From positions 1 to 34,664 of the forward strand of contig CAWJQC010000003.1 of NCBI GenBank assembly GCA_963844965.1: 34,664 nt of DNA, read 5' to 3'. Below are positions 4,717-28,892 of this stretch, one piece after another (the first letter of the stretch is position 1; every line of letters begins with the position of its first letter). The position numbers were made by a program, and so were the translations under genes. This DNA comes from an uncultured bacterium (lineage in GTDB: Bacteria > Patescibacteriota > Minisyncoccia > UBA6257 > 2-01-FULL-56-20). The notes under the pieces are model-generated. The model was not told the DNA's origin. It was given only the letters and a program-made list of their open reading frames with translations, and made no database searches.

Positions 4717-5479
4717 GTTTCTTTTTCTTCTCCCTCGCTTCTTTCAGAATTTTTTCTATCATCTCGTCGGTTTCTTTCTCAGCTTCTTTTTCTTTCGTCA
4801 AAATTTTCCTCAGCTTCTGTTCCCGCGGTTCGAAAATCGCGCCGTTTGCTTCATGCTCCGCTCTCACTGCTCTTATCTGCATGTCCAGAAGATAATTGGT
4901 TTGGTTGATAAGACAGATAAGGCAGTTTGCCGCCTCTTCGGGATTTTCAAGATAGGTCTTATAGGTCGTATAGGACTTATCAATCCTATCAATCCTATCA
5001 GTCCTATCAGTCCTATCAATCCTATCAGTCCTATCAGTCCTATCCGTCCTATCCGTCCTATCCGTCTTATAAACCAATTGCCGAACCGCAAGCGCCCTCG
5101 GGTTGTCCTTCTTCCAGATTTGGAAATTCCGCTGGCGCAGAAAATCGGAGTAATCTTCCAGCAGTTCTTCAAAGGAAGCCCGCGCGACGCCGAGAAGAAA
5201 AATTTCGGTTTTCGGCGAGTTCTTTCCGGCGGCTGCGCCCTCTACGATGTTTTGTTTTCCTGAACGTGCCGCCTGCATCATCTGGTCGCTTTGGCGCGTA
5301 AAATGATAAGTCGTATAGGTCTTATATGTCCTATCCGACCTATCCGTCTCATCGGTCTTATCCGACTTATCGAACCCGGACCCGCGGGGTTCAACGTACC
5401 GGCGGCAAAACTCCGCGGTCATGTCGCAAATTACGGTTGCCTGTTCGTAGGATTTCAAATTTTTGTAAGTGGGCGGCAT
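4706..5479 (-). CDS. Four-helix-bundle protein (PF05635-like, '23S rRNA intervening sequence protein' family) carrying two in-frame tandem-repeat insertions.
   Basis: The core reads 'QMMQAARSGKQNIVEGAAAGKNSPKTEIFLLGVARASFEELLEDY' and matches the 4HB motif 'QL.RS..S...NI.EG..R.S..EF..FL.IA.GS..E'. A 9-bp repeat GTCCTATCA x10 is translated in frame as TDRTDRTDR. Start is placed at Met33 (5479) because upstream codons lie inside a repeat array. Confidence 0.5.
   Translation of the reverse strand: MPPTYKNLKSYEQATVICDMTAEFCRRYVEPRGSGFDKSDKTDETDRSDRTYKTYTTYHFTRQSDQMMQAARSGKQNIVEGAAAGKNSPKTEIFLLGVARASFEELLEDYSDFLRQRNFQIWKKDNPRALAVRQLVYKTDRTDRTDRTDRTDRIDRTDRTDRIDRIDKSYTTYKTYLENPEEAANCLICLINQTNYLLDMQIRAVRAEHEANGAIFEPREQKLRKILTKEKEAEKETDEMIEKILKEAREKKKKQDL
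4953..5073. repeat. Tandem array of about 13 units of 9 bp (GTCCTATCA / GTCCTATCC / ATCCTATCA) plus TATAGGTC units, inside the 4HB ORF.
   Basis: Seen directly. Period 9, so the reading frame is preserved. Confidence 0.85.
5306..5376. repeat. Tandem 8-9 bp units (TATAGGTC / CTATCCGAC family), array 3, inside the 4HB ORF.
   Basis: Seen directly. Confidence 0.75.
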
Positions 5480-5500
5480 CGTTTCGGTTTTGGTTTTTTT

Positions 5501-5561
5501 ATGCGTCCCATGCGTCTTATAGGTCCTATAAGACCTATACGTCTTATAAGTCGTATAGTAG
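5501..5561. repeat. Tandem 8-9 bp units (ATGCGTCC / TATAGGTC / TATAAGAC), array 4.
   Basis: Seen directly. Confidence 0.75.
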
Positions 5562-5606
5562 ACCCGCCGGTACAACTTATCAACATCTCCAAAAACAACG
5601 GAGCAG

Positions 5607-5615
5607 TGTTAGAAT
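5607..5615 (+). promoter_or_regulatory. TGTTAGAAT extended -10-like element (one of 4 identical copies in the window).
   Basis: Exact 9-mer TGnTAnAAT upstream of the 5735 gene. The same 9-mer occurs at 9270, 9568 and 27544, each upstream of a + strand gene. Confidence 0.35.
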
Positions 5616-5654
5616 TAGAGAAAGCGGGCATCGCGGCCCGAGGTTTTTGGTATT

Positions 5655-5720
5655 AAGTCCTATGCGTCCTATAAGTTCTATTGGCCTTATAAGTCCTATG
5701 CGTCCTATAAGACCTATAAA
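5655..5720. repeat. Tandem 8-9 bp units (TCCTATGCG / TCCTATAAG), array 5.
   Basis: Seen directly. Confidence 0.75.
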
Positions 5721-5734
5721 AAACCGTTCGCATT

Positions 5735-8700
5735 ATGAATAAGCACTTTGCCCTTGCGCTCATAATCATTGCCTCCGCGATAGTCGTTGCCGGCGGCGTT
5801 GTCGGCGTCGTTTTGGGCGACAGCACGTCGCAGATGAACCTCGGGGTTTTGAACATAACGCCGCGGCGGCCGATACTGAATTATCCTGCGCCGAACTCAA
5901 CTATTTCGTACGCGGGCAGCACTTTTCAGATAACGGCGACGAAGCCCACGGGCGGCGGCAGTTACGTGCAGTACAAACAAGTGATTTATCAGAACGAGGC
6001 CTGCACGCAGGTCGTGCAGACAAACGACGAAACGGCGTCGCAAACCGGCTGGAGCGGCGAGAACGCTTCTGCGAGCGAGGCCTATGCCGCCGGAAACGCA
6101 ACCGGTTCTGCCGGTACCTTCACTTTACAGACGAACTTGGCGACCAATACCACTTACTGGTGGGGCGCGCAGGCCTACGACCCCGACACTGCGGGAAGCT
6201 GGGGCACGAGCACGCTCACGCGAGTGGACAACGCGTGGACTACGAACGCGAATTCCCTGCCGACCACACTTTCAATGTTCTATGCCGTTACTTACAATGG
6301 ATATATTTATGCGTTAGGAGGGTGCGCTAGCACTGTTTATTACGCTCCGATAAATTCCGGCGGCACTGTGGGTATATGGACGACGAATCCGAACAATATG
6401 CCTGCTTCACTTGGCAGTGACGTAGCCGCTGTCGCCTATAACGGATATATATATACAATCGGAGGGGGAGTTTGTGGCCCCAGTGTCAACACCACTACCA
6501 TTTTCTATGCCCAGATTAACGGCTCAAGCACTGGCCCGTGGCTCACAAACCCCAATCCGCTGCCCACAGCGCTTGAGCACAACTCAGCTGTCGTCTGGAA
6601 TGGCTATATCTACAATCTTGGTGGAAGCACATCAGTCGGTAACTGTGCCAATGGCACCACCACCGTCCTCTACGCCCAAATCAACGGCTCCAGCACCGGG
6701 GCGTGGCAGACAAATCCGAATTCGTTGCCCACCACCGTAACGTGCGCAGCCGCTGCCGTCTATAATGGCTACATATATGTGATTGGGGATGATGCCATAT
6801 ATTATTCTACTTCCAGTGTCTTCTACGCCCCGATAAACTCCGACCACACGGTTGGCGCCTTTCAGACAAACCCCAATTCCCTGCCGAGTGCGATTGGGGA
6901 CAACTTCGCCGTCGCCTATAACGGCTATATATATTTGATTGGGGGGGAGAATGCCGCTAGTGTTGCTACCTCCACCGTCCTCTACGCCGCGATAAATTCC
7001 ACAGGGTCGGTCGGTGTATGGCAAAATGCCGCCTCTCTTCCGAGCTTAAACAGATACGGCTCTGCCGTTGTCTCAAACGGCTATGCCTATCTTATGGGCG
7101 GCAATGACGGGACGAATGACACTTCCACTGTTCTCTATTCCCAAATCAACCAGCTCGGTTCCACCGCCGCCGAGGGCTGGATAAACAACTCCGCTCTCGC
7201 AAGTTCAATCTATCTGAACGATGCCCTTGCCTATAACGGCTACATTTACTCAACAGGAGGAACATCGGACGGCACGAACGGAACAACAACCGTGAATTAC
7301 GCCATGCTGAACTCCAACGGCACCCTGGGCAACTGGCAAACGACGGCAGCTCTTCCCGCGAACACCGTCCAGCACGGAGCATTCGCCTATACGAACTCAG
7401 GCGGCACGACCCTCCTCTATACAATAGGCGGCGGCACCACGGTAGGAGCTGCAGGAAACAAGGTGAACCAGGCGACGGTCAACACGAACGGCACCTTGGG
7501 AACCTGGAGCGCTGCCGTTTCGGCAAACCTTCCGGCAAACTACGAGAACAGCTTCACGGGAGCGGCGAACGGCTACGCCTATCTCGTGGGAGGGGATAAC
7601 GGCACGAATGCCACAAGCGCCGTCCTCTACGGCCTCATAAGCTCCACGGGTACTATCAAGAACTGGTCTTCAACGAACCCTCTTCCCGCTGCCGTAACGA
7701 ATCAGGGAGGCATAATCCTGAACAACGTCATTTACGACATCGGCGGCAGCACGGATATCGCGGCTGCGAACATCACGACTACCGTTAACTACGCTCCCAT
7801 CAATTCCAACGGTTCTGTCGCGAGCTGGACAGTGAGCACATCTCTGCCTGCTCCCATCATCCAGCCGGACGTTGAGACCTGGAACAACTTCATCTATGTC
7901 ATCGGCGGCTCGTCAACCGTGGCCTACGGAGGAGCGACGACAACGGTTCTCTACGCCGTTCCAGCCGGCAACCAAAGTAGCTCCGGCTTCATAGTCCAGT
8001 CCAGCGGCACCTTGTCGTCATGGCTTGCCGCCACCCCTCTTCCTTCTCCTCTTTACGAGGAGGGTTCGGCTGTAGCAGACGGCTATCTCTATACCGTGGG
8101 AGGCAAGAACTCTTCGGGAGCCACTACGACCGTTCAAAACACCGGACTTTATACTTCCTGCATAGCGTTCAATTCGGTGACGAACTACGCGCCGTCGGTT
8201 TCCGCGGTTTCCTTGAACGGCGGCAACGCGCTTACCCTGACGGCCAACGCCACGACGAGCTTCAGCATAAATTATTCCGTGACCGACCCGAACGGCTGTT
8301 CCAATATCGCGAGCGTAACCTCCACCGCCTTCCGCACGGGAGTCGCCGGTGCTTGCGCCACGGCGAATCCCGCGACCGACAACCGAAATTGCTACCTGAG
8401 TGTCGTCAACTCCACGAGTTCCTGCGCGGGCACGAACTACAACGAAACCGATACTGTCGCTCTTTATTATTTCGCCGATTCAACGGGTATCACTACCTCA
8501 AGTTACCCAACCCAGCACTGGGAGGCCTACGCCACGGTCTTGAGCAATTCGGGCTTGACCGCGAGCGCCACTTCTTCCAACGTGGACGTGAACGTCCTCT
8601 CCGCCATAAACGTGACGGAGCCACTTCCAGTGTCATTAATTATGGTGCTTTATCGCAAAACGCGAATACCGGTTTGTGAATCAGACAACGACGGTGCAGA

Positions 8701-9002: not shown

Positions 9003-9236
9003 CAAAGTCAAAATTCAAAAGGCAAAAGTCAAAAGTTAAAGTAAAAAATCAAAAATGAAATACTTTTTACATTTGACATGCAATTTTGACCTTTGAGTTT
9101 TAACTTTTGACATTATCTGAGCTGACTTTTGATTTTTGCCTTTTGACCCCGAGCCCTGCGTACTGAAACAAGAACGCGACGACTTTTGACATTTGACCTA
9201 TACTTTTGACTTTTGAATTTTGCCTTTTGACCTTAA
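9003..9236. repeat. Inverted arrays of the 8-mer GTCAAAAG / CTTTTGAC. There are about 6 units on the + arm (9003-9060) and about 10 on the - arm (9066-9236).
   Basis: Seen directly. A large imperfect palindrome centred near 9062, with no gene inside. Confidence 0.75.
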
Positions 9237-10885: not shown

Positions 10886-11060
10886 CGGCCGGAGTCTTTA
10901 ATCACGCAGCGGCTCAAGCCGCGCGGGTTAAAGAGAGTTTGCTGATATAAACCACGATTTCGCCGCCCCGTTAGGGAGCTGTGAATGTTGGGCTAAACTA
11001 ACAGGGCATTGTTGGCAAGCAGCTGTTTTACGGCTGCTGAGACAGTCCAGCGCGAAATAT

Positions 11061-11188
11061 TTTGCTGCGGACAACTACTGGTCTTCTGCCGAGAACGATG
11101 CCGCGAACGCCTACAACGTGAATTTCACGAATGGCGGCGTGAACAACAACAACAAGACCAACGCCAACTACGTCCGCTGCGTCCAAGG
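11061..11188 (+). other. DGR template repeat (TR).
   Basis: AAC-rich (reads as AADNYWSSAENDAANAYNVNFTNGGVNNNNKTNANYVRCVQG*). Every difference from the VR is at a TR adenine. Confidence 0.85.
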
Positions 11189-11227
11189 TTGATTTATAAA
11201 AGCGAAAATCGCCGATATTTCAAAAAA

Positions 11228-11584
11228 ATGCGCAACACCGAGCGATTGCCTCTTTATCACAAGACATACGGACTAATCAAGCATTTATACGGCGTGATCA
11301 GGAGCTTTCCCAAGGAATATAAATATTCTATGGGGAGCGAAATCATGAATCTTTCGTGGAAATGCCTTGACCTTATTATTGAAGCGAACGCCTACCCCAA
11401 TGCTCAAAAGAGCGTGAAAGTCGCCGAATTAAGCGCGGCATACGATAAATTAAAAATGCGGCTGCGGATGAGCCAGGAAATCAACCTGACATCAGCCGGC
11501 CAATTCGCTCATCTTGAAGAAAATTACATGCTGGAAATAGGGAAAATGATTGGCGGCTGGAAAAAATGGGCGGGGGCAGAATAA
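11228..11584 (+). CDS. avd: Avd (DGR accessory variability determinant).
   Basis: About 118 aa, placed between TR and RT. It matches the bAvd pattern (Y..L..L..V.R.FPK.YKY..G..I....W.CLDLII.A...K.......LS...D.L...LR......I......H.E...LEIGKMIGGWKK) and has the C-terminal GGW motif. Confidence 0.7.
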   Translation: MRNTERLPLYHKTYGLIKHLYGVIRSFPKEYKYSMGSEIMNLSWKCLDLIIEANAYPNAQKSVKVAELSAAYDKLKMRLRMSQEINLTSAGQFAHLEENYMLEIGKMIGGWKKWAGAE

Positions 11585-11620
11585 ATTTCTAATTTCTAAT
11601 TGACCTAATTGATTTAAATA
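11584..11620. repeat. Left inverted-repeat arm (aatttctaatttctaattgacctaatt...) of a MITE-like element.
   Basis: Its reverse complement recurs at 11863-11900. The same family, without cargo, is at 28797-28887. Confidence 0.65.
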
Positions 11621-11833
11621 ATGTTCAATTCCAAAATCCCAAACAAAGATAAATATGATTTGGAAGAAAGAACCGCAAAATTCGGCGAAGAAGTTATCAG
11701 ATTTTGCCAAGAATTGCCCCAAAATGAAATAACCAGACCGATAATAAATCAGCTGATAAAATGCGCAAAATTATGGGTTGAAGCCAAAGAGTTAAATCTG
11801 ATTTTCAACGCAATCAACAATAAATTGAAATGA
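11621..11833 (+). CDS. Truncated 4HB-family gene fragment (N-terminal two-thirds only).
   Basis: 'YDLEERTAKFGEEVIRFCQELPQNEITRPIINQLI' matches the 'FDLEERL..FA..II.L...LPK......I..QL.RS' N-terminus of 4HB proteins. It lacks the C-terminal helices. Confidence 0.4.
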   Translation: MFNSKIPNKDKYDLEERTAKFGEEVIRFCQELPQNEITRPIINQLIKCAKLWVEAKELNLIFNAINNKLK

Positions 11834-11862: not shown

Positions 11863-11900
11863 TTTAGGTCAATTAGAGCAATTAGAATAATTAGAAATTA
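11863..11900. repeat. Right inverted-repeat arm (tttaggtcaattagagcaattagaataattagaaatta).
   Basis: Its reverse complement matches the left arm at 11584-11620. Confidence 0.65.
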
Positions 11901-11903
11901 CCC

Positions 11904-13040
11904 ATGGCCATCTTCACCTATGAAAACCTGTATCGCGCGTATCTTGACTGCCGGCGCAATAAAAGAAAAACGATTAACGCGCTGAAATTTGAGATTGATT
12001 TAGAAAAGAATTTGTCTTTACTGCTTGAAGAATTAACGAGCCGTCGATACCAGCCAGGCCGCTCGATTTGTTCGTGGTCAAATATCCCCAGCCGCGGGAA
12101 ATATTCGCGGCTGATTTCCGCGACAGGATAGTGCACCATCTGCTGGTCGGCCAAATTCTGGCCGAAAGCGAAAAAAGCTTTTTTTACAACAGTTTCGCTT
12201 GCCGCAAAGGAAAAGGTACGCACAAGGCGGTCGGACTTTTGAGAAGATACCTGAAAAGCGCTTCCAGAAGCGGAAAAGAGAAAATATTTTACCTGCAATT
12301 GGATATCGGAAGTTTTTTCGTGTCAATCCGGCACCGCGTTTTATTTTCCATTTTCAGCGAATTTGTCGGCAAATTGAACCGGACCGAAGAATGGAAACAA
12401 GAAATTTTATGGCTGGCTGAAAAAATCATTTTTTACGAACCAGCCAAAAATTGCGAAATAAGAGGCGATAAGAGCTTGCTCGCGCTGATACCGCCGCACA
12501 AGTCGCTTTTTAACGCGCCGCCAGAACGGACTGCCGATTGGCAATTACACCTCGCAATTTTTCGCCAATATGTATCTGAACCGATTGGATTATTTCACCA
12601 AGCAGACGCTTAAGGAAAAATTTTATATCAGATATGTTGACGACATTGTGATTTTAGGAAAAAGCGCCGGCGCGCTTAAAGGTCTGATTCCCGAAATTAA
12701 CAGGTTTTTGAAAAAAGAATTGGAGATTGAACTGAATCTTGACAAGATCAAGTTCAAAAACGTTTCGGCGGGCATAGATTTTCTGGGCTATTTTGTGAAG
12801 CCGGATTACACGCTTGTCCGCCGCCGGGTGGTTAAGAATTGCAAGGAAAAAATCCGCCCTGCCCCCGAAGTTTCGAAAAAATTGGTCTCGCAAGCCAATT
12901 CTTATCTGGGGCATTTTATCCACGCCGCGAGCTACGGATTGAGAAAAATGATTTCAGAGAGGTTAATCAAAGCGGACAATTCTATACATTTTAGCAATGG
13001 CTATAAATCGATATTCGCAATAATTGGCGGGCAAAGAAAA
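11904..13040 (+). CDS. DGR-type reverse transcriptase. It is frameshifted (frame 0, then +2 near 12065, then back to 0 near 12520) and read through in frame into the downstream surface-protein gene.
   Basis: It carries these DGR-RT motifs:
- 'YQPGRSI / FVVKYPQPREIFAADFRDRIVHHLL'
- 'SFACRKGKGTHKAV'
- 'IFYLQLDIGSFF'
- 'GLPIGNYTSQFFANMYLNRLDYF' (found in frame 0)
- 'YIRYVDDIVILG' (the YxDD box)
- C-terminal 'SQANSYLGHFIHAASYGLRKMI'. Confidence 0.8.
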
Positions 13041-14975
13041 ATAATCAAAACGGCGGTTGCCGCGGCAGTTCTGCTCGCGGGCTTTTCGTTTGCTCATTCC
13101 GCCTCCGCCGCTTATTTCAAGACCGGCTCTTTGGTTTCCGCTAACCTCTTGGACGGCTTGACCAACGTCGGCGCGATTACCCAATTTAACGCCACAACTT
13201 CCATCGCGGCGGGCACTTCGGTAAGCGTCCAATTTTCCCGCAATAAACTTACCTGGTACAGCGCCTCCGGCACGGCGTTCGCCACAAGTTCGCTTTCGGA
13301 CGGCGCGAACAGCATTGACTTGTCGGCGTTGGGGTGGACCGGCCCGATTTTTTATTACAAGCTGCAATTCGCGACGAATGATTCAAGCATCACTCCGACT
13401 GTATCGGGCGTGGCCGTGAATTACAATTACAGCTCCGGACCGACGTACGAGTATTTCGGGCAAGGGTCTTTGGTTTCCGCCAATGTGCTTGACGGTCATA
13501 CGGACGTCGGCGCAATTACCGGATTTTCCGCTTCAACTACCGTGCCGGCCAGCACGACAATAACAGTCCAGTTTTCGCGCGACAAATTGGTTTGGTACAA
13601 CCATTCCGGCGTGGCGTACGCCGAAGACAGCTTGTCCAACGGCTCCAATGTCGTTAATTTGTCCGCTTTGAATTGGACCGGTCCGCTGATTTATTATAAA
13701 TTGCATTTTACCACAAGCGATGTCGGCCAGACGGCGGCTATTTCATCGGCCGAGATTGATTATTCAGCCGGTTCCGGCTCGGTATATTTCAAGCAAGGAA
13801 CATTGGTTTCAACAAATCTTTTGGCTGGCGGAGGGACGCTTAGCGGAAACGAATTGTTCGGCTATAACATTTCTTCTTTGCCTTCTGGAACAACGGTTCA
13901 GGTCCAATTCAGCACCAGTAGCGCCAATTGGTTCAGTTCCACTGGCACCGCTTGGGCGTGGGACACCTTGTCCAGCGGCAGCCACCTTACCGCTTCAACC
14001 GCGATTAACTTGTCCGCGCTTGGCTGGACCGGCGCCAGTTTTTATTACAAATTAGAATTCACAACGACTGATGCCGGCACAACTCCGACAGTCGCTCAAA
14101 TATCGCTCTTTACGCCGGGAGCGCTGCCCATCGTTACGGTTCTGATGACGGTCGTCTCAAGCAGCGCTCCCATCGTATCCGCCGTATCGGTGAACGGCGG
14201 CAATTCCATCACGCTCACGCCCGCGACAACGACCCCGATCAGCGTCAATTTCACGGTTACGGATTATTCCGGCTGTTCAAACGTTTTCACGAGCGGCAAC
14301 GTTACGACCACGCTTTACCGCATGGGCGTCGGGAGTTCGTGCGTGGCGGACAACCGCAACTGCTACAGGACTTCCTCGCAAACCAACAATTGCTCGGGCA
14401 GCGGTGCCAACGCCACGGCAACTTTGAATCTTTACTATTTCGCCGATTCCACCGGCAGCCAATCGCCGACCTCAAGTTATCCATCCGACCACTGGCAGGC
14501 CTATGTGCAGGCGCTGGACGGGACGGCGAACGCCACGGGCACCGCCACGTCAACCGTGAACGACGTTAATGTCTTGACGGCCATCACCGTTACAACTTCT
14601 TCCATCAACTACGGCACGATGTCGCCGAATGCGACGACCTCGGCCGCGAGCGACCAGCTCGCGACCGTGCAGAACGTCGGCAATTCGTCCACGACTTTGA
14701 AAATTTCCGGCACGGCGCTCGTAATGTCCTCGCCTTACGACGCGTTCGCAACGTCCAGCCAGCATTACGCCACATCCACTTTCCAGTGGAACGCCAGCGG
14801 CCCGGAGCAGCAACTTCAGCAAACACAAACAACGGTTCCGGGATTTTCTCTGACTACCCCCACCTCCACGAGTGCCGTGAGCGGTAACACTTATCGGGGC
14901 GTGCAAATTCCCGGCAGCGCGCAAAGCGGCGTGCACGTGGGGATGATAACGTTCAGCTCAAATTGGAGCCAATAA
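13041..14975 (+). CDS. Secreted surface protein with three tandem repeats of about 100 aa and the shared C-terminal domain. The start is uncertain because there is no canonical in-frame start codon.
   Basis: A signal-peptide-like 'KIIKTAVAAAVLLAGFSFAHSASA' is followed by three units of 'YFKxGSLVSxNLLDG...VQFS..KL.WY..SG.A.....LS.GSN...LSAL.WTGP..YYKL.FTT.D'. The tail is 'VSAVSVNGGN...DNRNCY...LYYFADSTGSQSPTSSYP...TVQNVGNSSTTL...QHYATSTF...WSQ*'. Confidence 0.55.
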   Translation: MIKTAVAAAVLLAGFSFAHSASAAYFKTGSLVSANLLDGLTNVGAITQFNATTSIAAGTSVSVQFSRNKLTWYSASGTAFATSSLSDGANSIDLSALGWTGPIFYYKLQFATNDSSITPTVSGVAVNYNYSSGPTYEYFGQGSLVSANVLDGHTDVGAITGFSASTTVPASTTITVQFSRDKLVWYNHSGVAYAEDSLSNGSNVVNLSALNWTGPLIYYKLHFTTSDVGQTAAISSAEIDYSAGSGSVYFKQGTLVSTNLLAGGGTLSGNELFGYNISSLPSGTTVQVQFSTSSANWFSSTGTAWAWDTLSSGSHLTASTAINLSALGWTGASFYYKLEFTTTDAGTTPTVAQISLFTPGALPIVTVLMTVVSSSAPIVSAVSVNGGNSITLTPATTTPISVNFTVTDYSGCSNVFTSGNVTTTLYRMGVGSSCVADNRNCYRTSSQTNNCSGSGANATATLNLYYFADSTGSQSPTSSYPSDHWQAYVQALDGTANATGTATSTVNDVNVLTAITVTTSSINYGTMSPNATTSAASDQLATVQNVGNSSTTLKISGTALVMSSPYDAFATSSQHYATSTFQWNASGPEQQLQQTQTTVPGFSLTTPTSTSAVSGNTYRGVQIPGSAQSGVHVGMITFSSNWSQ

Positions 14976-14983
14976 TCTTAAAA

Positions 14984-15036
14984 TTAACGACATCGTAAGT
15001 CATTAATTAATAATTAACGATGTCGTAAGTCGTTAA
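14984..15036. repeat. Two REP-like palindromes (TTAACGACATCGTAAGTCATTAA and TTAACGATGTCGTAAGTCGTTAA) between convergent genes.
   Basis: Seen directly. They are the same family as the hairpin at 4631-4657 and the palindrome at 15752-15774. Confidence 0.75.
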
Positions 15037-15722
15037 TCGAGCGAAACGTTTTTGACCTCTTCTATTTCAATATCCTTAAGCCACTGTTTTATATTTTTTT
15101 CGTATTCCGCGGGGCCGCCGAAAAATTTCATAAGAAATTCTCTATTAGTAACCGACGGAAAATTTTTCTTGCCGAGATAATCAAGGTGGCTTGACCAGCG
15201 GTAATTATCCAAGAATTTCATCGCTTCTCTATGGTTCTTGATCTCGCGTTCGCGCCATTCCGGCGCCGCGAGGTCCAGCGGGTTCACGTGTATGTAATAG
15301 GGGATATGGTTGAAATGCGATTCGTTCTTTATCACCATGGATTTGTACCTGCCTTCAAATAACGTCCCCTTCCTTTCGTATTTCTGATTGAAATATTTTG
15401 CGTATCCCACGTTGATTTTTTTCATAAACGCCGTGATAGCTCCATCCGTGCGCGGGGAAAGAAGGAGATGATAGTGGTTGGGCATTAGACAAAACGCGTA
15501 TATATCAACCAAGAGTTTTCTTGGTTCTCTTGGCTTTGATTTGCCGCCAATATAACGACTTGCGACATCGTTAGATTGGTTGAATCTATAAAAAGCGTTA
15601 TTTACCCTGTTTTGGTCGTTAAATTCAAAAAGATCGTGGATAAACCTCAAATAATCCTGTTTATCAAGGAAGATTTTGCGTTTATCCACGCCCCTGTTCA
15701 GTGTGTGGTAGACATCAGCCAT
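15033..15722 (-). CDS. REP-associated tyrosine transposase (RAYT), a Y1 HUH transposase of the IS200 type.
   Basis: HuH motif 'CLMPNHYHLLL', then 'GAITAFMKKINVGYAKYFNQKYERKGTLFEGRYKS', then 'YYIHVNPL'. REP-like palindromes flank it on both sides. Confidence 0.7.
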   Translation of the reverse strand: MADVYHTLNRGVDKRKIFLDKQDYLRFIHDLFEFNDQNRVNNAFYRFNQSNDVASRYIGGKSKPREPRKLLVDIYAFCLMPNHYHLLLSPRTDGAITAFMKKINVGYAKYFNQKYERKGTLFEGRYKSMVIKNESHFNHIPYYIHVNPLDLAAPEWREREIKNHREAMKFLDNYRWSSHLDYLGKKNFPSVTNREFLMKFFGGPAEYEKNIKQWLKDIEIEEVKNVSLD

Positions 15723-15751: not shown

Positions 15752-15774
15752 CTAACGATGTCGCAAGTCGTTAA
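15752..15774. repeat. REP-like palindrome CTAACGATGTCGCAAGTCGTTAA upstream of the RAYT gene.
   Basis: Seen directly. Confidence 0.7.
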
Positions 15775-18167: not shown

Positions 18168-18237
18168 ATTAACGAGTTAACGAGTTAACGGGTTTTTTGT
18201 TATTTTTATAACTCGTTAACCCTTTAACTCGTTAACT
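18168..18237. repeat. GTTAAC-based palindromic repeats (TTAACGAGTTAACGAGTTAACGGG ... AACTCGTTAACCCTTTAACTCGTTAAC).
   Basis: Inverted copies that could form a terminator-like hairpin. The family recurs at 20720-20888, 21541-21612, 23915-23975 and 27419-27500. Confidence 0.7.
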
Positions 18238-18355: not shown

Positions 18356-19330
18356 ATGAAATTGCGAAATAAAACTTTTTTGCCGTCGCTCGTCGCATTT
18401 GCGCCAGCTTTTTCTATTTTCTATTTTCTATTTTCTATTTTCTACCCGGTATACGCGGACAATAGCGTCAACGTCAGCACGACATTTGTTTTGGCTCCGA
18501 CAACGATCGTTCTCACCCAAAACTCGTACAGATGGTATGACAATATAGATGCCCTGACCCCCAGTAATCCGCTTACCGCTGGGGAAAGTTCTCCGACCTC
18601 AACGCCGGCAGGCGGGACAGTCCTGCGTTTGCGGATGAACATAGTGGACAGCGGCCTTGGCATTGGCGCCGGAGCAACCTTCAAGCTTCAATACGCGAAT
18701 TCCACATCTGGAAGCTGGACCGATATCAGCACGTCCACCGCTTGGGTTCTTTACGATAATCCCTCGGTTGCCGATGGGCAGGTAATAGTCACGACAGTTT
18801 TGGCTAGTTCTAACATGGGGGAAAGTTACTGTGAGTCAAATCCGACTGCGGCAATGCCAAGCCCGATACTCCAGGGGCAAAGCGGGGAGTGGGATTGGGT
18901 GGTCGCCAATAATTACGCCGACACGGCGAGCAACTGGTTTTTCCGGATGGTCTATTCTTCAAGCACGGAGCTTGATAACTATTCTGGCTATCCGGAATTA
19001 ACCGCGGTGGTGCCTCCATCCCCGCCGACGCCGCCCGCTCCGTCCGGCGGAGGGGGCGGGGGAGTAGTGGGCGTGGGGGCTGGTCAAACATTGTTGCCAA
19101 GCCAGCCCGCGACCACGACGCCGTACCTGCCGATTCCGCCGCCCTTCGTCCCGCCCGCAATGCAGTGCATTGACTATAACGGCGACAACCGCGTTGACAT
19201 GATTGACCTATCCATTCTGCTCTATCATTACGGCGAAACCGGCCCGGATATCGGCTGTTTTGATTTGAATCACGACGGCATTGTGGATTTCCCGGATATT
19301 TCCATTCTGATGTATTATTGGACTTCGTAA
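18356..19330 (+). CDS. Secreted protein with a jelly-roll-like central domain, a Pro/Gly-rich linker and a C-terminal dockerin-like domain of 2 EF-hand-like repeats.
   Basis: Signal peptide. Dockerin pattern 'CIDYNGDNRVDMIDLSILLYHYG...CFDLNHDGIVDFPDISILMYYW'. The central domain (RLRMNIV...FKLQYANSTSGSW...NWFFRMV) is homologous to the protein encoded at 3-480 of this window. Confidence 0.55.
   Translation: MKLRNKTFLPSLVAFAPAFSIFYFLFSIFYPVYADNSVNVSTTFVLAPTTIVLTQNSYRWYDNIDALTPSNPLTAGESSPTSTPAGGTVLRLRMNIVDSGLGIGAGATFKLQYANSTSGSWTDISTSTAWVLYDNPSVADGQVIVTTVLASSNMGESYCESNPTAAMPSPILQGQSGEWDWVVANNYADTASNWFFRMVYSSSTELDNYSGYPELTAVVPPSPPTPPAPSGGGGGGVVGVGAGQTLLPSQPATTTPYLPIPPPFVPPAMQCIDYNGDNRVDMIDLSILLYHYGETGPDIGCFDLNHDGIVDFPDISILMYYWTS
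18410..18444 (+). repeat. Heptanucleotide repeat TTTTCTA x5 inside the signal-peptide coding region.
   Basis: Seen directly. It encodes FSIFYFLFSIFY. A 7-bp unit is not a multiple of 3. Confidence 0.85.
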
Positions 19331-19332
19331 TA

Positions 19333-19393
19333 ATCCGCTAATCAACGCTAACAAACATAATCCGCTAATAGACGCTAATCATAAGACGCTAAT
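19333..19393. repeat. About 5 units of CGCTAAT(C/A)A immediately upstream of the GxxExxY gene.
   Basis: Seen directly. Confidence 0.65.
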
Positions 19394-19807
19394 ATGAAAA
19401 AAATTATAGAAGATCTAATTTATAAAGATTTGTCTTTCAAAATACATGGCGCGGCTATTGAAGTGCGTAGGGATTTTGGAGCAGGGCATAAAGAGAAGTT
19501 ATACCAACAGGCTCTTGCCGCAGAATTAGACAGGCGCGGTATAAAATTTGAAAGAGAGAAAGCCATCAAAATTTATTCGCCAAAAGATGGCAAGTTTGTC
19601 GGCCTCTATCGGCCAGATTTTGTCGTGGAAAACAAGATAATTGTTGAAACAAAAGTAGAAACATTTGTGAGACAGGATGAAATAAAAAGAATATATGATT
19701 ATTTGAGGAATAGTGAGTACGAGCTTGCTTATCTGGTCAATTTTGCTTCGCCGCAACTATACGTAAGAAGGATAGTTTATACAAATAAATATAAATCAAA
19801 AATCGGT
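19394..19807 (+). CDS. GxxExxY protein (PD-(D/E)XK nuclease superfamily). It has no stop codon of its own and runs in frame into the next gene.
   Basis: 'DLIYKDLSFKIHGAAIEVRRDFGAGHKEKLYQQAL...YRPDFVVENKIIVETKV...YLVNF' contains G-HK-E-KL-Y, the family signature. It is related to the ORF at 24870-25313. Confidence 0.6.
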
Positions 19808-20695
19808 ATGAAAATTGCAATACTATTCTTGGCGTCTATTGGCTTATTATTAGCGGATATTAGCGGCGTACGGGCCGCTTCGCAGTCGCTTTATTTCTCG
19901 GCGCCTTCGGGAACCATCGCCGTCGGAAGCGAATTTCCGGTCAAAATACTGATCGATTCCGACCAGCCGCTTAACGCCTATGTCGTGACTTTTTCCTACG
20001 ATCCGGGCGTGCTCACGATTGTGGGTTTTGACAACGGCAAGTCAATCATAGATGTTTGGCAGGGGCAGCCGGCCGTTTCCGAAAACGGTTCCGTCGGCTT
20101 GCGCGGCGGCAGCGTCACCCCGTTCAGCGGGAAAGGCGGTAACATCATTACCGTCAATTTCCGGGCGGTGGGAGAAGGAGAGCCGATGCTCGCGTTCGGC
20201 AACTCATCGTTTTATATGGCGAACGGCAAAGGCACGAAAGTTGTTCCGCAAACCGCCGATCTGAAGTTTCAAATTCTTTCGGCCGGCGCCGTCACTTCAA
20301 CACTTCCGGTTTACGAGGAGGCATCGGATATCGCGCCGCCGACCATAAAATATCTGTCTCTCGTCCAGGATCCGTTCAACAGCGGGCAAAAACTTCTGAG
20401 CTTTATGGTTTCGGATCCCGACTCCGGTATCAGGGAGACTCTGGTGCGTACGCGTTCACTCCTCCTCTGGAGCGACTGGATTCCGGCGCAAAACCCGACC
20501 GCGATTCCATTATCCGCCTGGTCCATCGGCTTCAGAGCCATTGATAACAGAGGAAATATTTCGGAAAGAACGCTTTACAACTTTTCGGCGTTTTTGCGTC
20601 CCGAAGCGTTGGGCGTCGCGGCGCTCTTCATTATATTTTTAGTTATCATCGGCTTTATTATAGTAAAGATTAAAAAAGGTCGTTCCGTATCATAG
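19808..20695 (+). CDS. Secreted protein with a cohesin-like N-terminal domain and a C-terminal TM anchor.
   Basis: ATG at 19808 is followed by the signal peptide 'MKIAILFLASIGLLLADISGVRA'. The motif 'AYVVTFSYDPGVLTIVGF' resembles the cohesin 'F.YDP.VL' core. The C-terminus 'LGVAALFIIFLVIIGFIIVKIKK' is a membrane anchor. Confidence 0.45.
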   Translation: MKIAILFLASIGLLLADISGVRAASQSLYFSAPSGTIAVGSEFPVKILIDSDQPLNAYVVTFSYDPGVLTIVGFDNGKSIIDVWQGQPAVSENGSVGLRGGSVTPFSGKGGNIITVNFRAVGEGEPMLAFGNSSFYMANGKGTKVVPQTADLKFQILSAGAVTSTLPVYEEASDIAPPTIKYLSLVQDPFNSGQKLLSFMVSDPDSGIRETLVRTRSLLLWSDWIPAQNPTAIPLSAWSIGFRAIDNRGNISERTLYNFSAFLRPEALGVAALFIIFLVIIGFIIVKIKKGRSVS

Positions 20696-20719: not shown

Positions 20720-20888
20720 GTTAACGAGTTAACTTCTTTTCTTAACCGGTTGGTCGGTTATTGCGGTTAACGAGTTCGCGAGTTAACGAGTTAAAATCCA
20801 AACCCGTTAACTCGTTAACACGTTAACTCGCCAACTACATAACTGTTTGTTCGATAAATTAAACTCGTTAACACGTTAACTCGTTAAT
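20720..20888. repeat. Cluster of GTTAACGAGTTAAC-type palindromic repeats, about 10 units in both orientations.
   Basis: Seen directly. Fills the whole intergenic region upstream of sodA. Confidence 0.75.
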
Positions 20889-20914: not shown

Positions 20915-21538
20915 ATGAAATTCGAATTACCAAAGTTGCCGTACGCATATGACGCGCTTGAGCCATTTATAGATGCGCGAACAATGGAGCTGCACCATGC
21001 CAAACATCATCAGACCTATGTTACCAAGCTAAACGAAGCCATGGCGAAGCATCCCGAACTGGAAACGCCGAGTTTGGAAAAATTGCTTCAGTCGCTGGAT
21101 AGCGTTCCCGCAGATATTCGCACTGCCGTGCGGAATCACGGTGGCGGCCACTATAACCACTCGTTTTTCTGGAGGGTGATGGCGCCGCATTCCGAAAAAA
21201 GCGATAAGCCGCAAAACGGCGGACTTGCCGAAAAAATCGAAAAAACATTCGGCAGCTTCGCAAAATTCAAAGAAACTTTCAGTTCGGCAGCCGCCGGCGT
21301 TTTCGGCAGCGGCTGGGCGTGGCTCGTTTCCGATCCATCGGGTAAATTATCTATCACGACAACGCTGAATCAAGATAGCCCGATCGTGAGCGGCCTCAAG
21401 CCATTGCTTTGTCTTGACGTCTGGGAACACGCCTATTACCTGAAATATCAAAACCGCAGGTCCGAGTACATTGAAGCGTGGTGGAGTGTCGTGAACTGGG
21501 AACAGGTTAATAAGAACCTTAACGAATTAATCGATTAA
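20915..21538 (+). CDS. sodA: Fe/Mn superoxide dismutase.
   Basis: '[29 protein letters not shown]', 'GSGWAWL' and '[15 protein letters not shown]...VVNW' are hallmark SOD motifs. Confidence 0.9.
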
Positions 21539-21540
21539 AG

Positions 21541-21612
21541 AGTTAACGAGTTCACGAGTTAACGGGTTAAAATATCAAACAACTCGTTAACACGTTAATA
21601 AACAACCCGTTA
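21541..21612. repeat. GTTAACGAG palindromic repeats downstream of sodA.
   Basis: agttaacgagttcacgagttaacgggtt ... aactcgttaacacgttaat ... cccgttaattcattaacg. Confidence 0.7.
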
Positions 21613-21683
21613 ATTCATTAACGTGGCCACTTGTTTGGATTGGACAGATTATGGCTTGTTCACAGCAAGAGCGGCGCCCTTAG

Positions 21684-23898: not shown

Positions 23899-23914
23899 CC
23901 GAACTAATTAAAGG

Positions 23915-23975
23915 ATTAACGGATTAACGCATTAACGGATAATAATTCGTTAATTCGCAATTCGTTAATAAGAAA
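23915..23975. repeat. ATTAACGGATTAACGCATTAACGG / TTCGTTAATTCGCAATTCGTTAAT inverted repeats.
   Basis: Seen directly between convergent genes. Confidence 0.65.
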
Positions 23976-23994
23976 TTAGTCAATCCGTGCTGGC

Positions 23995-24855
23995 TTAAAG
24001 TGATTTTGGGCGTCCGCCTTCCTCTTGTATTATTTTGAGCGCAAGTTTACCGTTTTGGATTTCAGCTTCCAGAAGCTTGATTCGTTTCCCGTTTTTCATT
24101 GTCCAAACGCCGGGCTCAGGGTTCAGCGCCCGGATCCTCCTTTCAATTGCCGCAACTTTTTCCGAACTCGCGCCATTCACGGCCTCGTTGAGGTCGCTTT
24201 CGGCGACGAAGGCGTCGGCTGTCGCAAATTTTTTCGTGTATGTCGCTTCCGCCTCATTCTGTGGTCGTGGCTTGATCTCTCCCGCCAGGAATTTTGGCAG
24301 TGTTTCAACCAGCAGGTTGCCACCCAATTCTGCCAGTTTTTCAAGGAGAGTTGGAAATTGGAAATTGGAAATTGGAAATTCCAATTCTCGCTGCGCGAGA
24401 ATTGGCCCATGGTCAACTTTTTCGTCCAAAATATACAACGTGACGCCGGTTTCTTTATCGCCCTCCAGTATGGCGGTTTGGATAGGGGATGAACCGCGGT
24501 GTTTGGGAAGGAGCGACGGATGGACGCCCACCACGCTGCGCGGAAAAGCGGCGATTATTTCCGCGGGGATTATCTTGGCGTAGGCGGCGACAACCGCGAA
24601 GTCCGGTTTGGAAATTGGTAATTGGTAATTGGAAATTGACAAAACTTCCGGCTGCAATATCGGAATGTTATATTTTTGCGCCAAAAGTTTCGTGGGTGGC
24701 GGCGTTATGATTTCCTTCCTCCCGACTGGTCGGTCGGGATTGCAAACCACGGCCGCAGGCGGCATTCCGGCGTCAGTCAGCTTTTGCAAAATTATAGCGG
24801 CAAATTCGGGTGTGCCGAAGAATACGAAATTGGGCTTACGAAAATACGAAATCAT
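23995..24855 (-). CDS. fmt: Methionyl-tRNA formyltransferase.
   Basis: 'FFGTPEFA', 'VVCNPDRPVGRK', 'HPSLLPKHRGSSPIQTAILEGDKETGVTLY' and 'KLAELGGNLL'. The N-terminal 9 aa and two internal 7-aa stretches are encoded by tandem 7-mer arrays. Confidence 0.85.
   Translation of the reverse strand: MISYFRKPNFVFFGTPEFAAIILQKLTDAGMPPAAVVCNPDRPVGRKEIITPPPTKLLAQKYNIPILQPEVLSISNYQLPISKPDFAVVAAYAKIIPAEIIAAFPRSVVGVHPSLLPKHRGSSPIQTAILEGDKETGVTLYILDEKVDHGPILAQRELEFPISNFQFPTLLEKLAELGGNLLVETLPKFLAGEIKPRPQNEAEATYTKKFATADAFVAESDLNEAVNGASSEKVAAIERRIRALNPEPGVWTMKNGKRIKLLEAEIQNGKLALKIIQEEGGRPKSL
24353..24380. repeat. GGAAATT x4 inside fmt.
   Basis: Seen directly. Translated as 'PISNFQFP' on the - strand. Confidence 0.85.
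24610..24637. repeat. GGAAATT-GGTAATT-GGTAATT-GGAAATT inside fmt.
   Basis: Seen directly. Translated as 'SISNYQLPIS'. Confidence 0.85.
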
Positions 24856-24871
24856 ACGAAAGTACGAAACT
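24821..24871. repeat. TACGAAA(A/T/G) x5 array spanning the fmt start and the GxxExxY stop.
   Basis: Seen directly. Confidence 0.8.
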
Positions 24872-25313
24872 AGCGAATGTTGATAATTCTTTTGTATTTC
24901 ACGCCCGACCTCGTGAATCTTGCCAAAATTCCCAATTTTAAACCAGTAGCCTTTAGATAGTTATACAGTTGATCGATGTCACGCTTGTTAAATGTATTGC
25001 CCTGCTTTATTTCCAAAACAATCTTTCCGTCAATCAAAAAATCTAAATAATTTGTGGCGATAAATTTATCGCGATAGCATATTTTTACAGGCAATTCTCG
25101 CTTAAAATTCAGACCCACGCCCTTAAAAGCAACTTCGATTGCTCTTTGATATTGGTTTTCTCTGTAGCCGTAGCCGAGTTGCAAGAAAATATCAAAAAGA
25201 ACCCCAACGATTTGGTAACTTAATTCAGGATATATTAAGTCTGGCTTGTAGACCCTACCCCTTTTCGTATTTTCGTACATTTTCGTATTTTCGTATGTTG
25301 CTTGCTTTGTCAA
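24870..25313 (-). CDS. GxxExxY protein (PD-(D/E)XK superfamily) inserted between def and fmt.
   Basis: 'LSYQIVGVLFDIFLQLGYGYRENQYQRAIEVAF...KIVLEIKQG' contains G-YR-E-NQ-Y. The ORF opens with TTG at 25313, and the first ATG (about 25280) lies inside the TTTCGTA repeat array. Confidence 0.6.
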   Translation of the reverse strand: MTKQATYENTKMYENTKRGRVYKPDLIYPELSYQIVGVLFDIFLQLGYGYRENQYQRAIEVAFKGVGLNFKRELPVKICYRDKFIATNYLDFLIDGKIVLEIKQGNTFNKRDIDQLYNYLKATGLKLGILARFTRSGVKYKRIINIR

Positions 25314-25764
25314 TGAACAGCACTCCGTTCAGATGGTCCATTTCATGCTGAAAAACCCTGGCCAGAAGTCCCCAGGCCTTGATTTTGAGGCGCTTGCCGT
25401 TTTTATCGTAGCCGGAGAGGGTCACCCGCCCGGGGCGCTCAACCGCGCCGTAAGTCAAAGGAACGCTGAAGCACCCTTCTTCCAGCGGCACCTTTTCGCC
25501 GCTTGTTTTTTCTATCGCGGGGTTGAAAATGGCGTAGAACTTATTGCTGCCGTCGCGGTCAGGCACTTCGGCTACAAAAAATCTGAGATCAAGGCCGATC
25601 TGGTTCGCCGAAAGCCCGACGCCGCTTGCCGCGCGCATTTCTTTTTTCATGCGAGCAATAAGTTCGTTGATCTCTTTCTTTGTAAATTTATTGAAATCAA
25701 AATTTTCCGTCGCGCGTCTCAAGATTTTTTCGTCCTTTTTATTGTCGGTCCTCAAAATATTCAT
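25255..25764 (-). CDS. def: Peptide deformylase.
   Basis: 'GVGLSANQIG', 'EGCFSVP' and 'QHEMDHLNGVLFIDK'. The last ~15 aa (SNIRKYENVRKYEKG) are repeat-derived. Confidence 0.85.
   Translation of the reverse strand: MNILRTDNKKDEKILRRATENFDFNKFTKKEINELIARMKKEMRAASGVGLSANQIGLDLRFFVAEVPDRDGSNKFYAIFNPAIEKTSGEKVPLEEGCFSVPLTYGAVERPGRVTLSGYDKNGKRLKIKAWGLLARVFQHEMDHLNGVLFIDKASNIRKYENVRKYEKG
25260..25297. repeat. TTTTCGTA x4-5 array (the reverse complement of the TACGAAAA array).
   Basis: Seen directly. It overlaps the def 3' end and the GxxExxY 5' end. Confidence 0.8.
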
Positions 25765-26096
25765 AATAAACGGTTTTTGGCGCGATTTCCGCGCTTTTGT
25801 TTTTTGGTTGGCTTTCGTTTCAGCCAGGCCTTAGCCTCTTTTTCGGTTTTGAGAAGCGCGGCCATGAAATATGCGCCCTTATTTTTTATGTTCTCACGGG
25901 AGGCGACATCGGCAGCGAGCCACTCCAACTTTGCCGGGTTGCCTTCCTTCGCCAGTTTCATGTAGAGCCCCTTGTGTTTTCTGTCGTTCAATTCCTCGCC
26001 GATCCGCAAACCAGTGAGCTGGTGCTTCTTGTACACGTGCGACTTTTTCGCCCGTTCTTTGAGTTTTTTCAGGTATGCGTCTCGCACCGTGGTCAT
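25761..26096 (-). CDS. Hypothetical basic protein. Its TGA stop overlaps the def start as ATGA.
   Basis: ORF only, Lys/Arg-rich. The 4-bp overlap suggests an operon with def. Confidence 0.35.
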   Translation of the reverse strand: MTTVRDAYLKKLKERAKKSHVYKKHQLTGLRIGEELNDRKHKGLYMKLAKEGNPAKLEWLAADVASRENIKNKGAYFMAALLKTEKEAKAWLKRKPTKKQKRGNRAKNRLL

Positions 26097-27418: not shown

Positions 27419-27500
27419 GCGGGTTAACGCGTTTAAAGAGTTAACGAGTTTAGAAATTCACAACCCGTTAACGCATTAACTCGTTAACTATATAATCGGT
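27419..27500. repeat. GGTTAACGCG ... GTTAACGAG ... CCCGTTAACGCATTAACTCGTTAAC palindromic repeats.
   Basis: Seen directly. Confidence 0.7.
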
Positions 27501-28796: not shown

Positions 28797-28887
28797 CTAA
28801 TTTCTAATTGACCTAATTACTCTAATGTTTTTAGAGATTTTGAGGTTGGGATTTATTTGGAAATTAGATATTAGAAATTAGGAATTT
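28797..28887. repeat. Cargo-less copy of the MITE-like inverted-repeat element (ctaatttctaattgacctaatt ... ggaaattagatattagaaattagg).
   Basis: Same arms as at 11584-11620 and 11863-11900. It fills the ctpA-rplI intergenic region. Confidence 0.6.
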
Positions 28888-28892
28888 AAACA

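Follow-up and report, generated by a model that had tools for sequence, protein, structure and literature searches.

A GxxExxY nuclease gene with inverted heptamer arms as a recurrent operon cassette in Patescibacteria, with a possibly homing-like way of life

How does a nuclease gene come to lie between two essential genes that most relatives keep side by side, and do the short tandem repeats around it belong to the gene or to the site? These questions are raised by a locus in an uncultured bacterium of the Patescibacteriota (GenBank assembly GCA_963844965.1, contig CAWJQC010000003.1, positions 1 to 34,664), referred to here at its full length of 34,664 nucleotides as the window. Within it, a gene of the GxxExxY family, denoted gxx1, lies between def (peptide deformylase) and fmt (methionyl-tRNA formyltransferase) and is enclosed by two arrays, or arms, of a heptamer. 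Comparison with related loci allows the conclusion, held with high confidence, that the gene and its arms form a discrete and recurrent unit. Its mechanism can be proposed with moderate confidence. On balance, the comparative evidence favors reading positions 24837-25296 as a compact, promoter-less selfish cassette resembling a homing endonuclease gene, with arms whose pairing would loop the cassette out of the operon's mRNA.

The def-fmt cassette and its arms

Four genes of the minus strand follow each other in transcription order: a 111-amino acid gene (25761-26096), def (25255-25764; TIGR00079, 1.7e-41; PF01327, 2.1e-46), gxx1 (24870-25280 from its ATG; TIGR04256, 1.1e-26; PF13366, 3e-26), and fmt (23995-24855; TIGR00460, 2.4e-63, with the profile matching from residue 10). 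The def and fmt genes are co-directional, match their hidden Markov models (HMMs) above the cutoffs, and are separated in the window by the cassette alone. The original prediction for this DNA had placed an open reading frame (ORF) of 147 codons between them; the ORF is real, but its length is likely 136 codons. A TTG at 25313 would give 147 amino acids (24870-25313) and the ATG gives 136, and the shorter form is the more likely because it is the form on record in the protein collection and because its MYENTK start is conserved among homologues, which at 60-86% identity mostly begin with an array-encoded MYE[NSI]TK. Exact-sequence look-ups of the 147-amino acid ORF and of Def gave no match. 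No promoter-like site was found within the cassette ahead of the nuclease start, the sole minus-strand match (24818-24791) lying in fmt just past its start.

The arms were delimited with Tandem Repeats Finder and by inverted repeat detection. Read in the sense of the mRNA, the 5' arm (25262-25296, minus strand) consists of four TACGAAA units and the 3' arm (24837-24869, minus strand) of four TTTCGTA units, in both cases with a spacing of 8/10/8 nucleotides; Tandem Repeats Finder reports 3.9 copies of TACGAAAA at 24837-24869 and 4.1 copies of TTTTCGTA at 25262-25296. The two arms are inverted repeats of 33 nucleotides each, 88% complementary, with 393 nucleotides between them, and the cassette extends over 460 bp (24837-25296). 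TACGAAA arrays had been predicted to bracket the ORF in the same sense. The bracketing is as described, but the orientation is not: on the plus strand, TACGAAA is seen in the left array and TTTCGTA in the right one. In mRNA sense, def runs into TACGAAAA TACGAAAATG TACGAAAA TACGAAA and then AGGGGTAG, which holds its stop codon; at the other side, the nuclease ORF ends in TAG and is followed by TTTCGTAC TTTCGTATGA TTTCGTAT TTTCGTA and then by AGCCCAAT TTCGTATTCTTCGGC, where fmt continues into VFFG. A fifth TTTCGTA-like unit (24822-24829, minus strand), recognized by direct reading against junctions that have no cassette, falls in the conserved fmt codons N-F-V-F. Relatives without the cassette have AAATACGTATTT at this position, and the unit may be native sequence of similar appearance or may belong to the element.

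Termini of all three genes are encoded by the arms. The last 13 codons of def (IRKYENVRKYEKG) and its stop codon run through the 5' arm, and the match to the Def profile extends to about residue 158-162 of 169; the earlier estimate of 15 array-encoded residues was right in kind and slightly generous in number. The nuclease ATG (25280-25278) lies inside an array, as had been proposed, namely within the central spacer of the 5' arm, and the fmt ATG (24855-24853) lies within the central spacer of the 3' arm. Fmt thereby acquires a 7-residue N-terminal extension that stems from the arm, its first 6 residues (MISYFR) being encoded by the array. The window sequence contains no further ATG, GTG or TTG between this start and the conserved VFFGTPEFA, in agreement with the prediction that the Fmt N terminus derives from repeat DNA.

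Heptamer arrays also occur elsewhere in fmt. Alignment with 16 relatives places two in-frame arrays in surface loops, at 24351-24380 and 24608-24638, where four copies of AATTTCC encode FPISNFQFP and four copies of CAATT(T/A)C encode ISNYQLPIS. The orthologous loops of relatives (L001-L008, L011, and L055) use other arrays, namely AATTTTC, ATGAATT (giving YELRIMNYE), CGAAATC, and TTCATAA. One relative (L005) carries a GGAAATT unit in the opposite orientation (GNWKLEI), and another (L055) has an in-frame insert of about 70 amino acids in the first loop.

The nuclease protein

Both GxxExxY proteins of the window, gxx1 and the product of a second gene described below (gxx2), score far above the curated cutoff of TIGR04256 (93.4 and 101 bits, cutoff 35), and the PF13366 match reaches 92.5 bits (cutoff 22). 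The family motif and the D...ExK residues are kept, as GYRENQY, LDF, and EIK in gxx1 and as GHKEKLY, PDF, and ETK in gxx2. Residues E41, Y44, D80, E90, and K92 are invariant in an alignment of 46 sequences and, judged from their pattern, comprise the predicted PD-(D/E)XK catalytic set, that is, the GxxExxY glutamate followed by D...ExK. A confident AlphaFold2 model (predicted local distance difference test score, 90.5) has the PD-(D/E)XK, or restriction endonuclease-like, fold. The assignment of both ORFs to this family, for which an HMM search had been suggested as the check, is thus borne out by profile scores, motifs, and predicted fold together.

Sequence searches found no homologue of solved structure, the PADLOC defense-protein models gave no match to either protein at E ≤ 0.01, and phage endonuclease models matched only weakly. 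No DDE, Y1, serine, or TnsA transposase model matched; GxxExxY/PDDEXK_3 is the only family matched by the cassette protein. For PF13366, a survey paper gives the function as unknown (PMC3424549).

The arms belong to the gene

A set of 79 unique GxxExxY loci, drawn mainly from one metagenome scan, indicates how general this architecture is. An array was counted as matched when a hexamer occurred at least 3 times upstream of the ORF and its reverse complement at least 2 times downstream. Matched inverted arrays accompany 54 of the 79 GxxExxY genes (68%); among control ORFs of these loci, the count is 7 of 235 (3%). In 48 of 53 loci the two arms share their dominant unit (TACGAA in 29, TACAAA in 15, TACTAA in 2, CACGAA in 1, and CACTAA in 1). 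Unit types cluster on the tree of the nuclease proteins, and the occasional switches always hit both arms. Because the arms are shared across insertion sites, the unit tracks nuclease phylogeny, and both arms change together, the arms belong to the gene. The arrays of the window are therefore a conserved part of a cassette found also at other sites and not products of local slippage. Two simpler accounts were rejected. Copying of the repeat unit from each target site does not hold because the units are few and related to one another and go with the nuclease tree, not with the place of insertion; an assembly artefact does not hold because dozens of independent assemblies show this architecture.

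Arm geometry is likewise constrained. Each arm has four units in a 2+2 arrangement with an asymmetric spacing of 7-8/10-11/8 nucleotides, which is mirrored in the partner arm, and a central spacer that is mostly non-complementary. When units were aligned across loci, 94.5% of cells paired and 87 cells carried double-sided changes, compared with 32 in shuffles (none of 500 shuffles reached the observed value), a count that is partly circular because 3' units were picked by their similarity to the 5' unit. The seventh unit position was not used in picking units, and this sole independent check pairs in 80% of cells. Complementarity extends some bases past the arrays in 40% of loci, compared with 13% when loci are paired wrongly. 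In the spacers between units, columns match in 65% of cases, compared with 35% by chance, an excess that the local alignment and the semi-conserved seventh position inflate.

Placement within operons is equally regular. Neighbors are co-directional with the cassette on the upstream side in 70 of 72 cases and on the downstream side in 57 of 62. In 43 of 49 loci the stop codon of the upstream gene comes before the 5' arm begins, mostly by no more than 7 nucleotides; the nuclease stop lies about 4 nucleotides ahead of the 3' arm, and in 31 of 38 loci the downstream gene starts beyond the 3' arm, mostly within 17 nucleotides. Host termini inside the arms, as in the window, are a minority arrangement (6 of 49 upstream, 7 of 38 downstream). 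Neighboring genes span more than 80 Pfam families, with recurrent junctions at rpsG|fusA (S7|EF-G), pilB|pilC (T2SSE|T2SSF), khpA|trmD, def|fmt, and secY|adk.

The same cassette at other sites

Cassettes of the gxx1 type with TACGAAA arms are found not only at def|fmt but also at corA|cysS (L081), at secY|adk (L098), and downstream of a 972-amino acid gene (L087-L092), so that a single nuclease clade of 65-75% identity occupies at least four different junctions. TACGAAA arm pairs without an ORF are present as well (L008, 3550-3660; L035, 10177-10270). At one locus (L085), forward TACGAAA units (5269-5340) encode the Fmt C terminus, YYESTKAR, and inverted units follow 1.1 kb farther on (6408-6440); this pair encloses a NifU-like gene and a 168-amino acid gene, which indicates that arms can hold cargo besides the nuclease.

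A second cassette lies on the plus strand of the window itself. Its 5' arm has five CGCTAAT units (19336-19392), its gene gxx2 (19394-19807; TIGR04256, 4.9e-29) lacks a stop codon and is in frame with the next gene, and its 3' arm has two units of the reverse complement, ATTAGCG (19847-19868). The array ahead of gxx2 and the missing stop codon had both been noted in the original prediction and are confirmed. The 3' arm overlaps the signal peptide of a downstream cohesin-like gene (ATG at 19808), and gxx2 and that gene form a fused ORF of 433 amino acids; a protein 72% identical to gxx2 (P0121) likewise reads on into the downstream gene region. Two gxx2 homologues (72% and 58% identical; L093 and L095) occupy the same context, with CACTAAT units in the 5' arm and ATTAGTG units in the 3' arm; both arms have thus changed together. 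The context shared by the three genomes consists of a gene ending in ...YHWT, read as dockerin-like, on one side and the cohesin-like gene on the other.

The def-fmt junction in relatives

Related junctions were collected by an Fmt scan of species-representative genomes, which returned Patescibacteria labeled Wolfebacteria or Paceibacterota with Fmt identities of at most 63%. The def gene directly adjoins fmt in about 50 of the 59 related loci that have both genes, with a gap of -21 to about +100 nucleotides and without the cassette, as expected if the window carries an insertion, and the cassette is absent within about 12 kb of def-fmt in most related genomes. At these empty junctions, Fmt starts M[KN]Y[VI]FFGTP and Def ends ...FIDKAK(E/D)LH plus 6-15 unrelated residues. 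A GxxExxY gene 62-71% identical to gxx1, with TACGAAA/TTTCGTA arms, fills the junction in three other lineages: Parcubacteria Athens0714_26 (L035), a Wolfebacteria metagenome-assembled genome (L055), and a 341-kb Joint Genome Institute contig (L085). Fmt of every filled locus, the window included, begins with M[ILF]SYFR at the ATG of the arm, its native ATG having decayed, and in three of these four loci the def frame continues through the 5' arm.

Host relationships were estimated from neighbor-joining trees (100 bootstraps) of Fmt, Def, and the upstream protein, covering 509 columns and 42 taxa. The four filled loci form a clade in none of the 100 bootstraps, the smallest split that holds all four contains at least 20 taxa, and the window pairs with an empty locus (L007) in 98 of 100. 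As the filled loci never form a clade and most relatives are empty, the distribution is patchy rather than clade-wise. A gene at this junction without repeats, which would have pointed to an old and stable arrangement, was not seen; the three filled relatives all have the arms, and the filled loci are not one another's closest kin.

Empty junctions are not always bare. In three, inverted array hairpins of unrelated sequence occupy the spacer between def and fmt (ATGAAT in L011, CTAGAA in L042, and TTAGTT in L061), one has a direct GCGACTA array (L075), and one, from Wolfebacteria (L057, 5376-5990), has a 625-nucleotide insert with an opposite-strand gene resembling nucleoside 2-deoxyribosyltransferases (PF05014, 1e-6). 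The Def C terminus of the last (NLRKFRDNEKARI) looks like a decayed TACGAAA arm. The def-fmt spacer is a hot spot. Its repeated use might be explained by the native fmt 5' end (AAATACGTATTTTTCGG), which resembles two units.

Pairing of the arms and a possible mechanism

The arms are well suited to pair. Joined by a tetraloop, those of the def-fmt cassette fold with -37.5 kcal/mol, compared with -15.5 ± 3.1 for shuffled sequences (z = -7.2; none of 200 shuffles reached the observed value), so their pairing is not due to chance. Folded alone, they give a 31-bp helix that is interrupted where the two AUGs face each other. When the minus strand of 24800-25330 is folded as RNA, the arms pair in both the minimum-free-energy and the centroid structures, with the ORF enclosed (z = -2.9). 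The arms of the second cassette fold with -28.1 kcal/mol (z = -3.9).

These features suggest the following sequence of events. The cassette would spread horizontally, entering the def-fmt spacer by a homing-like copying event initiated by the nuclease, and would be transcribed from the promoter of the operon. Its arms would pair in the transcript, and possibly in DNA, as the 31-bp interrupted helix, looping out the nuclease ORF and setting the upstream stop codon beside the downstream start. A ribosome completing translation of the upstream gene would open the helix and make that start accessible; an essential operon could in this way tolerate the insert while translation of the nuclease stays low. 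In the lineage with the cassette at def-fmt, the central ATG of the arm has replaced the native fmt ATG, which has decayed, and def has lost its own stop and now ends just past the 5' arm. Because def ends past this arm, a ribosome on def would open the helix over its full length and uncover the fmt AUG. Loop-out with retained translational coupling is suggested by the exact order of stop codon, arm, ORF, arm, and start codon; a selfish nuclease cassette is suggested by intergenic placement among conserved genes, the presumed co-transcription with the operon, patchy distribution, and the several sites occupied within one clade.

Several observations weigh against this interpretation or temper it. 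The activity, the target, and the mobility of the nuclease are deduced from comparison throughout. The catalytic tetrad is intact in all 79 loci and no pseudogenized copies were seen; homing endonuclease genes normally decay after fixation, so active sites intact everywhere are unusual for such genes and would also fit a function beneficial to the host. The host trees are neighbor-joining trees of three short proteins. Similarity of the host segments beside the cassette, the 3' end of def and the 5' end of fmt, is not raised over that of distal segments in filled loci, so no co-conversion tract is detectable at this divergence. The first 9 or so Fmt codons and the loss of the native ATG are common to all four filled loci, and the shared ATG loss and M[ILF]SYFR start fit a single origin better than four insertions unless flanking codons travel with the cassette. 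Lastly, mismatches of the G.U type do not significantly exceed those of the A.C type (86 and 70, p = 0.23), giving no bias toward the transcribed strand, and pairing in RNA therefore cannot be told apart from pairing in DNA or from arrays of one protein-binding motif.

Alternative explanations

The main rival to the selfish cassette is a domesticated enzyme with a RAYT-like role (RAYT: REP-associated tyrosine transposase; REP: repetitive extragenic palindrome). Such an enzyme would benefit its host by acting on array hairpins, either in processing operon transcripts or in resolving hairpins and cruciforms, and would be kept beside its substrate and inherited mostly vertically over a long period. 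The universally intact active site would follow naturally, as would the gxx2 cassette in one context in three genomes at 58-72% identity and the frequency of array hairpins at the ends of genes in this genome. In the same loci, a cassette's own unit also forms solo clusters at about 6-fold the per-unit frequency of other units (13 clusters, compared with 9 across four other units, which are small numbers from incomplete genomes). A vertically inherited enzyme would not be expected, however, to be distributed so patchily against the phylogeny of its flanking genes, to be missing near def-fmt from most related genomes, or to occupy at least four junctions within one clade, and a host enzyme would have no need of a place inside such a variety of essential operons; wobble mismatches, too, show no strand bias. 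On this evidence, domestication is considered rather unlikely. About as improbable, though broader in what it would explain, is a system in which GxxExxY nucleases and their cognate heptamer arms propagate repeats in bacteria of the candidate phyla radiation (CPR), much as RAYTs and REPINs (REP doublets forming hairpins) do, with a nuclease of the Cas4-like PD-(D/E)XK type. The nuclease would recognize the hairpin or cruciform of its own four-unit arms and seed copies of them genome-wide, and the arm helix would double as a coupling device across the insert, in the manner of ribosome shunting. If true, this could explain why ORF-less hairpins stand at gene ends, why arrays encode protein termini and signal peptides, and why in-frame arrays, with units and orientations that differ by species, fill orthologous surface loops of essential enzymes such as Fmt.

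Three other models fare worse. The arms might be generic intergenic hairpins that act as terminators or as REP-like repeats, which the window's RAYT-type transposase may have spread, with a nuclease gene that merely landed in a loop. Arrays are indeed common here: 21% of control ORFs have one upstream, unrelated hairpins occur at def|fmt in three relatives, and the window has many ORF-less array hairpins as well as a RAYT-like gene flanked by REP-like palindromes. This is nevertheless a doubtful account of a unit that follows nuclease phylogeny and is identical across insertion sites, of an association of 68% against 3%, and of a conserved 2+2 geometry with conserved distances to the start and stop of the ORF; moreover, the def|fmt hairpins of the other relatives have different units. 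Just as doubtful is a cut-and-paste or copy-out transposon, with the arms as terminal inverted repeats bearing sub-terminal binding sites, the PD-(D/E)XK protein as transposase (cf. TnsA of Tn7), and solo pairs resembling miniature inverted-repeat transposable elements. Inverted arms with short motifs repeated at both ends, general across loci, would suit it, as would ORF-less arm pairs in the same genomes and the many different insertion sites. There is no target-site duplication, however (direct matches of at least 4 nucleotides at arm borders in 13% of loci, compared with a null of 11%), the 136-amino acid single-domain nuclease has no strand-transfer partner nearby and matches none of the transposase models named above, and loci carry at most two cassettes in about 1.2 Mb of DNA; near-absolute co-orientation and exact stop-to-start placement would be unexpected of a simple transposon. 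Least probable by far is an RNA element like the intervening sequences (IVS) of 23S rRNA, in which RNase III would cut the arm helix and the cassette RNA would be removed. A long interrupted helix around an optional ORF recalls such elements, and the window includes an array-decorated gene with below-cutoff matches to 23S_rRNA_IVP and four-helix-bundle models. Cleavage of this helix, however, would cost def its stop codon and fmt its start codon, the cassette resides in an mRNA operon rather than in rRNA, the mismatches do not favor the sense strand, and no Rfam family or tRNA was found in the window.

Other repeats in the window

Inverted array hairpins of a TTAACGAG/AACTCGTT family, without ORFs, stand at gene ends (18169-18237, 20766-20887, 21519-21621, 23907-23977, and 27462-27489; z = -4 to -7). 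One lies between the convergent ends of fmt and a 732-amino acid gene, and the superoxide dismutase C terminus (NLNELID) extends into one of the hairpins; no cognate gene for this unit was found in the window. The RAYT-like Y1 transposase gene mentioned above (15033-15722, minus strand; PF01797, 8.6e-11; REP-associated tyrosine transposase model, 4.3e-11, below cutoff) is accompanied by REP-like 23-nucleotide palindromes of the form TTAACGAC-ATCGYAA-GTCGTTAA (4633-4655, 14984-15036, and 15752-15774). This pattern has five matches in the window, four intergenic and one in the RAYT-like gene (15552-15574), compared with none in shuffles, and the palindrome stem resembles the TTAACGAG array unit.

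The gene with IVS-protein likeness is a 289-amino acid ORF (4640-5740, minus strand) that matches TIGR04258 (1.2e-8), TIGR02436 (4e-5), and PF05635 (3.6e-4), four-helix-bundle/23S rRNA IVS protein models, weakly and below cutoffs. It contains in-frame 9-mer arrays (for example, DRT repeats from ten copies of TATCAGTCC) and is flanked by 9/18-mer arrays (4662-4716 and 5654-5719).

A second kind of armed mini-cassette has TCTAATT units (11584-11610), a 70-amino acid ORF (11621-11833), and inverted AATTAGA units (11866-11896), and its arms also occur as an ORF-less hairpin (28800-28890). It sits between two genes of a likely diversity-generating retroelement (11009-11584 and 11904 to about 12800) that encode a bAvd-like protein (PF22296, 8.5e-16) and a reverse transcriptase. 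The latter is split over three frames, with RVT_1 matches in 12068-12613 and 12570-14975, and its last frame runs on into an 801-amino acid repeat-rich surface protein. Other repeats comprise inverted AAAGTCA/TTTTGAC arrays (9004-9231) after a 1107-amino acid gene, where the array encodes the C terminus KSKFKRQKSKVKVKNQK; five copies of TTTTCTA (18410-18444) that encode part of a signal or transmembrane segment (FSIFYFLFSIFY) of a 324-amino acid protein; and a 172-bp tandem repeat in a coding region (3.2 copies, 73% identity, 1080-1618), probably representing protein-domain repeats.

Significance and comparison with known systems

The GxxExxY family has been annotated before, and its arms, operon habitat, and mobility appear to be newly described here: literature searches, not exhaustive, on the family, on CPR repeats, and on IVS/four-helix-bundle proteins found no description of any of the three. 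The family thus gains a genetic anatomy, a nuclease ORF with two co-evolving four-unit inverted arms, and a habitat, exact same-orientation insertion into the spacers of housekeeping operons. Together these provide testable hypotheses of homing-like spread and of a loop-out helix that keeps operon translation coupled. They also illustrate how repeat DNA is drafted into essential proteins of small CPR genomes, here the Def C terminus and the Fmt start codon and loops, as well as into a signal peptide. This matters for gene calling, as start and stop codons inside repeats are easily misannotated, and cassettes of this kind may explain part of the repeat load of CPR genomes.

The closest likeness is to the free-standing homing endonucleases of phage T4, which are intergenic cassettes without promoters, carried in polycistronic messages and regulated through RNA hairpins (PMC2988022). 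The seg and mob genes of T-even phages are likewise small nuclease genes in spacers of conserved and often essential genes, promoter-less and co-transcribed, patchily distributed among relatives, and subject to RNA hairpins that act at the gene start (PMC2988022). The present cassette differs in its PD-(D/E)XK (GxxExxY) fold, where theirs is GIY-YIG or HNH, in its host, which is a cellular CPR genome, and in having two conserved, co-evolving inverted four-unit arms that the phage genes lack; the likeness is drawn from sequence comparison. That a PD-(D/E)XK fold can drive homing is known from I-Ssp6803I, a small intron-encoded homing endonuclease without repeat arms. This enzyme is absent among the sequence and fold matches listed for the cassette nuclease.

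REP/REPIN sequences and their RAYTs offer a second parallel, with an enzyme gene between inverted copies of a short repeat, the repeat, to judge from a few solo pairs, present also in ORF-less hairpins, and enzyme clades that have their own repeats. The cassette departs from that arrangement in its enzyme, which is PD-(D/E)XK and not Y1 (HUH), in its tandem heptamers in place of a single palindrome, and in its fixed orientation within operons. The IVS of 23S rRNA and the Correia and enterobacterial repetitive intergenic consensus repeats have inverted flanks that form a long helix in the host transcript, can enclose a small ORF, and are tolerated in essential units. Here, by comparison, the element resides in an mRNA operon, its ORF encodes a nuclease, its arms are tandem units, and processing would damage def and fmt. 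Rickettsia palindromic elements, palindromes of 100-150 bp without an associated gene, are inserted in frame into genes. The window resembles them in placing repeat DNA in essential proteins (the Def C terminus, the Fmt N terminus, and two Fmt loops) and in a signal peptide, the difference being that coding use here is a by-product of heptamer arrays.

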